Numbered from the stretch's first letter, positions 32,185 to 32,346 are shown. The stretch: 64,000 nt of DNA from Candidatus Campbellbacteria bacterium (GCA_034521025.1 JAXHMZ010000005.1:197176-261175); one strand, 5' to 3'. Translations and numbers: made by a program. Notes: a model not told the origin generated them from the sequence alone.

Positions 32185-32204
32185 TGTCAACCTGCCAGGT
32201 TGAC
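32185..32204. repeat. Perfect palindrome GTCAACCTG-c-CAGGTTGAC (terminator-like hairpin just after the giant-2 stop)
   Basis: 9+1+9 palindrome starting 10 nt after the TAG. Confidence 0.7.
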
Positions 32205-32258
32205 TGATTTGGCTGAATGAACAACTTCGGAAGTTACTCAAAGTAATACTTATAAATT

Positions 32259-32281
32259 CTCCCTAGGTTAAACCTAGGGAG
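32259..32281. repeat. Perfect 23-bp palindrome CTCCCTAGGTT-a-AACCTAGGGAG
   Basis: Seen directly in the sequence. Confidence 0.7.
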
Positions 32282-32325
32282 AAGGGGGTGGTACACCCGA
32301 AGAGAGGAGTGATGGGGCGGTAAAA

Positions 32326-32346
32326 TGTCAACCTGGGAGGTTGACA
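32326..32346. repeat. Perfect palindrome TGTCAACCT-ggg-AGGTTGACA (second copy of the GTCAACCT core)
   Basis: Seen directly in the sequence. Confidence 0.7.

Follow-up and report, generated by a model that had tools for sequence, protein, structure and literature searches.

Palindromes downstream of a giant surface-protein gene of Candidatus Campbellbacteria: probable copies of a REP-like repeat of Patescibacteria

Classical repetitive extragenic palindromes (REPs) carry a conserved tetranucleotide, usually GTAG, on the 5' side of the palindrome. Together with the REP-associated tyrosine transposases (RAYTs) they make up REPtrons, which are known from E. coli, Stenotrophomonas and Marinomonas, the group 3 systems of the two latter genera possessing perfect palindromes (PMC8266576). 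REP doublets that form hairpins are called REPINs, and single copies have been read as their decaying remnants (Bertels & Rainey, PMC3337134). RAYT genes are described as single-copy, vertically inherited and domesticated (PMC5581495). Here, a stretch of 64,000 nucleotides (nt) from a metagenome-assembled genome of Candidatus Campbellbacteria (GCA_034521025.1, JAXHMZ010000005.1:197176-261175), hereafter the window, was analyzed, in which three perfect palindromes (P1, P2 and P3) follow a giant gene designated giant-2. P1 and P3 are most likely slightly worn copies of a REP-like element that occurs widely in Patescibacteria, a group for which the name candidate phyla radiation (CPR) is likewise in use. 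They would be orphan relics, perhaps doubled by a tandem duplication of ~135 nt. On this reading, the cluster consists of two worn REP-like repeats and one local hairpin, and is made up neither of operators nor of a dedicated RNA gene.

The palindromes and their repeat family

All hairpins of the cluster, i.e. P1, P2, P3 and that of the folA terminator, are located within the 258-nt spacer between the convergent genes giant-2 and folA. The first gene (29146-32175, + strand, stop codon TAG at 32173-32175) encodes a surface protein of 1009 amino acids (aa) with tail-fibre/Peptidase_S74 domains and an acidic tail, the second (32434-32922, - strand) encodes dihydrofolate reductase (DHFR) and is followed by thyA and a GGDEF gene. 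P1 (GTCAACCTG-c-CAGGTTGAC, 32186-32204) begins 10 nt past the giant-2 stop. The REP-like element formed by it extends from 32179 to 32211 with the core TGTCAACCTGCCAGGTTGACt at 32185-32205, 9 nt from the stop. P2 (TTCTCCCTAGGTT-a-AACCTAGGGAGAA) occupies 32257-32283 and P3 (AAATGTCAACCT-ggg-AGGTTGACATTT), the second REP-like copy, 32323-32349 with the core TGTCAACCTGGgAGGTTGACA at 32326-32346; none of the three elements is assigned to a strand. The first-pass annotation of the window had recognized the three perfect palindromes, the start of P1 relative to the stop codon and the length of P1 correctly, and its spacings between the palindromes hold as well (54 and 44 nt by its coordinates). P2 and P3 were described there as too short, since P2 has arms of 13+1+13 nt instead of 11+1+11 (32259-32281) and P3, rightly reported as a palindrome, has 12+3+12 instead of 9+3+9 (32326-32346).

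The claim that such palindromes are improbable by chance is borne out by shuffling. Perfect palindromes with a stem of at least 9 nt and a loop of at most 6 nt gave 25 hits at 12 distinct sites in the 64 kb, whereas shuffles of matched composition gave 1.7 +/- 1.5; within 165 nt there are three of the 12 sites. The octamer GTCAACCT occurs six times in the window (1.6 expected), four times at the P1/P3 cluster, and P1 and P3 are complementary to each other over 20 nt (95%), a point absent from the first-pass annotation. Along with the zero consensus matches expected by chance (see below), the shuffles and the octamer excess rule out a chance origin of the cluster. CRISPR repeats were rejected on account of the irregular spacing.

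When metagenome contigs were scanned for TGTCAACCT-N1-3-AGGTTGACA (18 specified bases), at least 120 loci were obtained, mostly from groundwater (Hainich among others), with 142 sites among the matches listed. The wide search for GTCAACCT-N1-3-AGGTTGAC that the first-pass annotation had proposed is thus positive. The family consensus is a perfect palindrome of 21 nt, TGTCAACCTG-S-CAGGTTGACA. A 3-nt centre was found in 111 of the 142 listed sites; it has the form G-S-C in 74 of the 111 (GGC 41, GCC 33), while GCG and CGC account for ten and nine sites. Several listed loci carry two to three copies (up to three to four per ~10-kb locus), and the fetched metagenome loci, 783 kb in total, contain 31 more copies with one to three mismatches where 0.27 would be expected. 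The contigs that share the 21-nt core span 29-55% GC. The cores of P1 and P3 each match the consensus at 20 of 21 positions, with the single change in P3 lying at the centre, and at up to three mismatches they are the sole consensus matches in the window, none being expected by chance.

Beyond the core, the palindrome continues into a foot of 4-7 bp, giving an extended consensus that usually reads AA-S-N-core-N-S-TT. The foot differs between contigs yet stays complementary (AACT/AGTT, AAGG/CCTT, AACA/TGTT, CCCG/CGGG), and 76 of the 111 listed sites possess at least four further complementary but variable bases outside the core. In P1, the left foot AAACG is of the consensus type and the right one is decayed, with TGATTT in place of ACGTTT; the foot of P3 is AAA/TTT. 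An alignment of 98 unique sites with P1 and P3 (100 aligned) revealed UA 39, GC 32, AU 15 and CG 2 at the first foot pair (8/30) and CG 45, GC 28 and UA 9 at the second (7/31). The covariation score was 0.232, compared to 0.094 in shuffles (reached in 0 of 500) and at most 0.12 with a slid partner, and one metagenomic locus (L184) contains a compensated variant of the core itself (TGTCGACCT..AGGTCGACA). This covariation is strong evidence for a hairpin. As G-U pairs are nearly absent from the family alignment, the symmetry is valid on both strands, which suggests that DNA and not a single RNA strand is the relevant form. Position-by-position counts at 63 oriented unique sites revealed neither GTAG nor any other one-sided motif within 15 nt.

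Outside open reading frames (ORFs) of at least 90 aa lie 93 of the 111 listed sites, and P1 and P3 are both extragenic. In 19 of the 99 unique listed sites, a long ORF stops 1-8 nt ahead of the core, and in 13 more such an ORF ends on a TGA within the core (GGT-TGA), together 32 of 99. The placement of P1 fits this stop-codon-proximal pattern of the family.

Beside many of the metagenomic copies, one arm and its foot are repeated once or twice more with a period of ~13 nt, e.g. AGGTTGACAccctAGGTTGACAccctAGGTT (L114 2765-2815, L118, L148 340-410, L088, L091, L092/L102, L099/L187, L126, L163, L204, L133); these repeats could have arisen by slippage at the hairpin or by repeated nicking and rejoining. 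Among viral contigs, five hits to the core with unrelated flanks were obtained; their centres all measure 1-2 nt and four lie in contigs of high GC, which is about the chance level or a different element. The loci L084, L085 and L086 (viral contigs) and L107, with ~58-60% GC, share a palindrome with a 2-nt centre, TGTCAACCT-AC/GT-AGGTTGACA, and conserved flanks (aaatagtggttgtcacttt). This different palindrome probably belongs to some other organism or phage, as an operator or repeat without relation to the family.

The partner enzyme and comparison with REP/RAYT systems

In 26 loci, all of which were retrieved through the palindrome alone, a protein of ~220 aa is encoded beside it. Palindrome pairs 662-722 nt apart bracket its gene in at least 17 loci; most listed palindromes are single copies with no such gene nearby. 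The REP often codes for the last residues of the enzyme and its stop codon (VNLAG-TGA), as in L124 2438-3100, L102 423-1088 and L196 6552-7289. Read in other frames, the REP gives rise to STCEVD or STWQVD tails. The protein contains the invariant motifs NHYHLLL (H72/H74, HUH-type) and YIPFYIDLN (Y128/Y132). Weak matches to Y1_Tnp were obtained at E<=0.01 for 31 of 34 members (best 3.7e-5), REP_Tyr_transpos of NCBIfam was likewise hit weakly, and a comparison of the enzyme profile with PDB sequences revealed ISDra2 TnpA (E 0.0045), the HUH motif and the catalytic tyrosine (Y132) being aligned. An AlphaFold2 model with a predicted local distance difference test value (pLDDT) of 86 and a predicted template modelling score (pTM) of 0.87 has as its top Foldseek match 4ER8, the RAYT of E. 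coli in complex with its REP hairpin (E 4.7e-5, probability 1.0, 185 columns), followed by the transposases of IS608 and ISDra2 (~138 columns). By this modelled fold the enzyme is RAYT-like; with scores below the curated cut-offs it is a divergent branch and not a member of the curated family.

The gene has recA on one side in seven loci and efp on the other side in five, it is situated between RNase R and SMC in three loci and next to groES in two, and the enzymes in shared slots are only about 55-73% identical. The kept neighbours argue for vertical inheritance rather than hopping. None of these neighbours (recA, efp, smc, RNase R, groES) is present in the window. Named relatives of the enzyme belong to Nomurabacteria, Parcubacteria, Pacebacteria, Minisyncoccota and the Patescibacteria group and are mostly annotated as 'hypothetical protein'. 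Among 50%-identity representatives, the enzyme profile detected 278 clusters at E<=1e-30, a number that rises to 3030 when E<=1e-10 is allowed.

The family resembles the REP/RAYT systems (REPtrons) of Proteobacteria, represented by E. coli 4ER8, in that it is a short palindromic hairpin, mostly extragenic and positioned at gene 3' ends. Also shared are a Y1/HUH gene flanked by copies on both sides, a fold nearest to 4ER8 and a conserved, apparently single chromosomal position. By keeping its neighbours, the CPR enzyme is similar to the domesticated RAYTs (PMC5581495) and unlike an insertion sequence. What separates the CPR family from REP/RAYT systems is the lack of a GTAG-type tetranucleotide, with a symmetric AA-S-N/N-S-TT foot that varies between genomes, and the perfection of its palindrome, whose strands differ in the central base only. 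Its apparent density is low (2 per 64 kb), the ~220-aa protein falls under the cut-offs of the curated hidden Markov models (HMMs), and the repeat is closely tied to stop codons, that of the enzyme gene among them. From species to species classical REPs are different, whereas the same 21-nt CPR core is found across contigs of 29-55% GC with enzymes ~50% identical, which is in part an effect of ascertainment. The DNA uptake sequences (DUS) of Neisseria and the uptake signal sequences (USS) of Haemophilus are found downstream of genes as inverted pairs, in DNA-importing organisms; they are far more numerous and are not known to be associated with an HUH enzyme. With these, the CPR repeat has in common a short conserved inverted repeat just past genes, a resemblance only.

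A literature search with the repeat sequence did not reveal any paper containing it, nor, among the results listed, was a published description of a RAYT or REP in CPR found, although absence from the searchable literature is not proof of novelty; in the text examined, two RAYT/HUH surveys (PMC5581495, PMC6006769) make no mention of CPR taxa. Patescibacteria genomes are minimal, densely packed and thought to be repeat-poor. A conserved hairpin repeat with a dedicated, syntenic enzyme for single-stranded DNA would be among the few lineage-wide non-coding elements known for this group. Recognizing the enzyme would improve its annotation, the 21-nt repeat is a simple sequence marker for Patescibacteria genomes in metagenomes, and the family is a natural test case for RAYT-type recognition of a fully symmetric hairpin without a GTAG guide. 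The consequence for the window itself is modest, two worn repeat copies and a local hairpin instead of a regulatory device.

Origin of the P1-P3 cluster

The assignment of P1 and P3 builds on observed properties of the family, namely membership by sequence, covariation of the hairpin, a location outside genes and close to stop codons, an enzyme gene lying right beside the repeat, and the motifs and modelled fold of the enzyme. By analogy with the REPtrons of E. coli, Stenotrophomonas and Marinomonas and with REPINs, the enzyme would bind the hairpin in single-stranded DNA and cut it, and in this way propagate the copies or keep them in place. P1 and P3 sit where such elements usually lie, just past a stop codon and in the spacer between convergent genes. 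They are read as orphan, decaying copies because an enzyme gene is missing in the window, both cores are mutated and half of the P1 foot is lost. In the 3' untranslated region (UTR) of giant-2, and in any read-through transcript of folA, P1, P2 and P3 form stable hairpins whatever their origin. These may act secondarily as 3'-end barriers and, by analogy with the REPs of E. coli, may protect the 3' end of the upstream mRNA. A REP within ~15 nt of a stop codon might, as Liang, Rudd and Deutscher reportedly suggested in 2015, interfere with translation termination, which would be possible for P1, too.

Several points weigh against the REP-like identity of the two copies. Their density, two in 64 kb, is far below the densities of classical REPs, and the hallmark of the latter, the conserved 5' GTAG tetranucleotide, is absent from the family. 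The enzyme misses the curated thresholds of both Pfam PF01797 Y1_Tnp (16.6-20.4 bits, cut-off 23) and NCBIfam NF047646 REP_Tyr_transpos (~22 bits, cut-off 80), and tblastn detected no RAYT-like gene within the 64-kb window. Moreover, since the exact-match scan required the core, core identity across the hits is partly an ascertainment effect.

The first-pass annotation had offered three options for the cluster, paired operators, a small structured RNA or the remnant of a mobile or recombination site at the right edge of an island. The last one came closest, inasmuch as P1 and P3 are REP-like repeats tied to an HUH/Y1 transposase-like gene. The edge is not tenable: the palindromes are situated inside the insert between fusA and tuf, flanked by the giant genes on the + strand and the folA-thyA-GGDEF block on the - strand, and do not mark its border. 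An att site at an island border was likewise rejected, as the palindromes are not at the ends of this insert and the GC content shows no break at 32.2 kb.

A more far-reaching possibility, which we regard as rather unlikely, is that the 21-nt palindrome and its ~220-aa HUH/Y1 partner constitute a phylum-wide, domesticated system of Patescibacteria and not a selfish repeat, in which case P1 and P3 would have a function at the 3' end of the gene for the giant surface protein. It draws on the housekeeping slot of the enzyme gene (recA-x-efp, next to smc or groES), on the stop codon built from the repeat and on a core kept while the enzymes are ~50% identical. If it were true, the hairpins, which lie only a few bases from stop codons, would set mRNA 3' ends, modulate translation termination or serve replication or repair on single-stranded DNA.

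As to how two copies came to lie 141 nt apart, a tandem duplication of ~132-141 nt comprising the gene end and the REP is the simplest history, for which we see about an even chance. The units would be about 32145-32276 and about 32277-32408. Alignment of 32145-32273, which spans the final ~30 nt of giant-2 coding sequence, the stop, P1, the spacer and the left arm of P2, with 32277-32405 gave a score of 32.5, compared to 15 +/- 2.5 in shuffles, and the upstream flanks are still similar when the cores are left out (GGGAGAAGAAAGTGGTACGTCAGAAGA and GGGAGAAGGGGGTGGTACACCCGAAGA, p about 0.01). The second unit is in the reading phase of giant-2 and would read GEGGGTPEE..., which is acidic-tail-like. 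Its first part (32277-32322, + strand) is a coding-like, non-coding relic that resembles the coding repeat of the acidic tail (GGGAGAAG..GTGGTAC..GAAGA) in the giant-2 phase. On the other hand, the downstream flanks of P1 and P3 exhibit no significant similarity (p about 0.2), and the centres, GCC in P1 and GGG in P3, differ at two positions, which independent insertions would explain equally well. The insertion of two separate REPs is the alternative to duplication and is slightly favoured by these differing centres.

For P2, relatives were found neither in the window (at up to three mismatches) nor in any of the fetched loci nor in the viral contigs. The pentamer AACCT/AGGTT that it has in common with the REP core is not statistically meaningful. 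P2 is a local one-off outside the REP-like family. Its right arm runs into a stretch that is homologous to the coding end of giant-2, and a weak alignment links its left arm with that of the folA terminator. With such weak support, P2 may be a hybrid hairpin formed at the duplication junction and later perfected by template switching. The suggestion of two operators arranged around a third palindrome as one designed unit does not hold, as P2 stands outside the repeat family.

Four other explanations of the cluster have to be considered. The family might represent the paired ends of an autonomous insertion sequence of the IS200/IS605 type, a mobile unit of ~720 nt, with the solo P1 and P3 as abandoned ends or miniature derivatives. 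The transposase of IS200/IS605 elements, a Y1 HUH enzyme, recognizes subterminal DNA hairpins in the single-stranded state. The CPR family is similar to them (IS608, ISDra2) as regards hairpins near gene ends, a Y1 HUH enzyme with the fold of the IS608 and ISDra2 TnpA proteins and a unit of gene plus hairpins of ~0.7 kb, the hairpin-to-hairpin distance of 662-722 nt being near the size usually quoted for IS200. We nevertheless deem this origin improbable. The same slots (recA-x-efp; RNase R-x-SMC) are taken in contigs whose enzymes are ~55-73% identical, so that by synteny the gene is fixed and vertically inherited, and the best and longest structural match, C-terminal extension included, is the RAYT 4ER8. 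Both ends carry the same symmetric hairpin and not distinct left and right ends, TnpB is lacking, and most palindromes are solo and distant from the enzyme gene. A locally selected function without mobile origin, P1-P3 being transcription terminators or mRNA 3'-end stabilisers of giant-2 and folA, is still harder to defend and in our judgement very improbable. The site lies between convergent genes with P1 10 nt past a stop codon, the hairpins are stable (RNA energies of -11.3, -19.8 and -14.8 kcal/mol for P1, P2 and P3), family members elsewhere also hug stop codons, and several other palindromes of the window flanked by A/T look like bidirectional terminators. However, a terminator scan of P1-P3 revealed no terminator-like site and no U-tract on the + strand; the stems are followed by TGATTTGG (P1), GGGGGT (P2) and TTTAGG (P3), in agreement with the earlier remark that the hairpins lack U-tracts. 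A local terminator would neither agree at 20 of 21 bases with sites that number in the hundreds on unrelated contigs of 29-55% GC nor flank a transposase-like gene on both sides, and folA already has a canonical terminator of its own. A co-opted secondary role is possible and belongs to the favoured REP-like reading of P1 and P3.

The two remaining explanations are those of the first-pass annotation, and both have hardly any probability left. P1 and P3 could be the paired operators through which a dimeric regulator controls giant-2 and/or folA, P2 serving as a third site; the sites are perfect, conserved and symmetric, and Watson-Crick pairs with almost no G-U are what recognition by a dimer would give. 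Yet both neighbouring genes end at the spacer, which leaves no promoter to control, and a promoter scan of the P1-P3 spacer was negative. A foot that is variable but complementary would be pointless in a double-stranded operator, the sites elsewhere lie at gene 3' ends, some of them containing the stop codon, and the steady partner, whose gene they flank, is a transposase-like HUH enzyme and not a helix-turn-helix protein. Operators of the BirA, LexA, parS, CtsR, Rex and NrdR types were dismissed, their usual consensus sequences giving no match, and the covarying foot speaks against them as well. Just as little can be said for a single structured non-coding RNA, or a long REPIN-like hairpin, across the ~165-nt segment, P1 pairing with P3 and P2 forming the apex. 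The minimum-free-energy fold of the + strand does pair P1 with P3 around P2 (z = -8.6), the centre of P2 (32270) is near the midpoint of the two, and seven close doublets (37-119 nt) occur among the listed metagenome loci. REP doublets (REPINs) are the replicating unit in Pseudomonas (PMC3337134), and P1 and P3, at a distance of 141 nt, resemble them in being close together and able to pair. Unlike in REPINs, the halves of the spacer are not significantly complementary, the left one scoring 6.5 with the reverse complement of the right one (shuffles 4.9 +/- 0.9, p about 0.06). Moreover, P1 and P3 have flanks that are alike in direct and not in inverted orientation, suggesting direct duplication, and each CPR REP is already a full symmetric hairpin. 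On the - strand, the fold consists of individual local hairpins at a comparable z, and such hairpins are what folding during transcription favours. The family members are mostly singlets elsewhere, their Watson-Crick-only symmetry applies to both strands, and Rfam 15 gave nothing at gathering score for P1-P3, with a spurious miRNA match on P2 (E 0.49) as the only entry at E<=1.

Surroundings of the spacer and other features of the window

The terminator of folA is an intrinsic-terminator-like hairpin at 32391-32424 (- strand, -18 kcal/mol) that is followed by TTTTT on the - strand and is outside the repeat family. Between P3 and this hairpin, a perfect 12-nt palindrome (ATTCTTAAGAAT) is present at 32362-32373, and an imperfect one (GAACAACTTCgGAAGTTACTC) at 32218-32240 takes the corresponding position after P1. 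Plasmid blastn gave no useful match. Close homologues of giant-2 and DHFR were not found, and a DHFR-based scan of contigs for orthologous loci retrieved only relatives of at most 52% identity without synteny. Exact-protein look-ups of DHFR, EF-Tu and giant-2 yielded no contig for a comparison of the locus, that of ThyA a single Logan contig of 2.5 kb which ends before the spacer.

The spacer belongs to a 13.7-kb block that splits fusA from tuf in an otherwise canonical rpsL-rpsG-fusA / tuf-S10 order (window 18914-36005). The block comprises three large surface-protein genes, two of them with Peptidase_S74 tail-fibre chaperone domains, folA, thyA and the GGDEF gene, and its GC content rises to 0.52-0.57 at 23-25 kb, inside giant-1.

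Apart from the P1-P3 cluster, a perfect palindrome of 38-40 bp, AAAATAAATGCTTCAATCTATAGATTGAAGCATTTATTTT, occurs twice, at 7406-7445 and 42693-42730. Both copies, 35 kb apart, are intergenic, flanked by A/T and bidirectional-terminator-like, and their exact repetition suggests a second, genome-specific family of palindromic repeats. Further perfect palindromes with A-runs and T-runs at gene ends (21114-21137, 33842-33869, 47550-47571, 59951-59979) look like the usual bidirectional terminators of this genome. Finally, an AdoCbl-II (cobalamin) riboswitch aptamer was detected at 60651-60722 on the + strand with 41.3 bits (the gathering score being 36.5); the ORF at 60828-62141 lies downstream of it.

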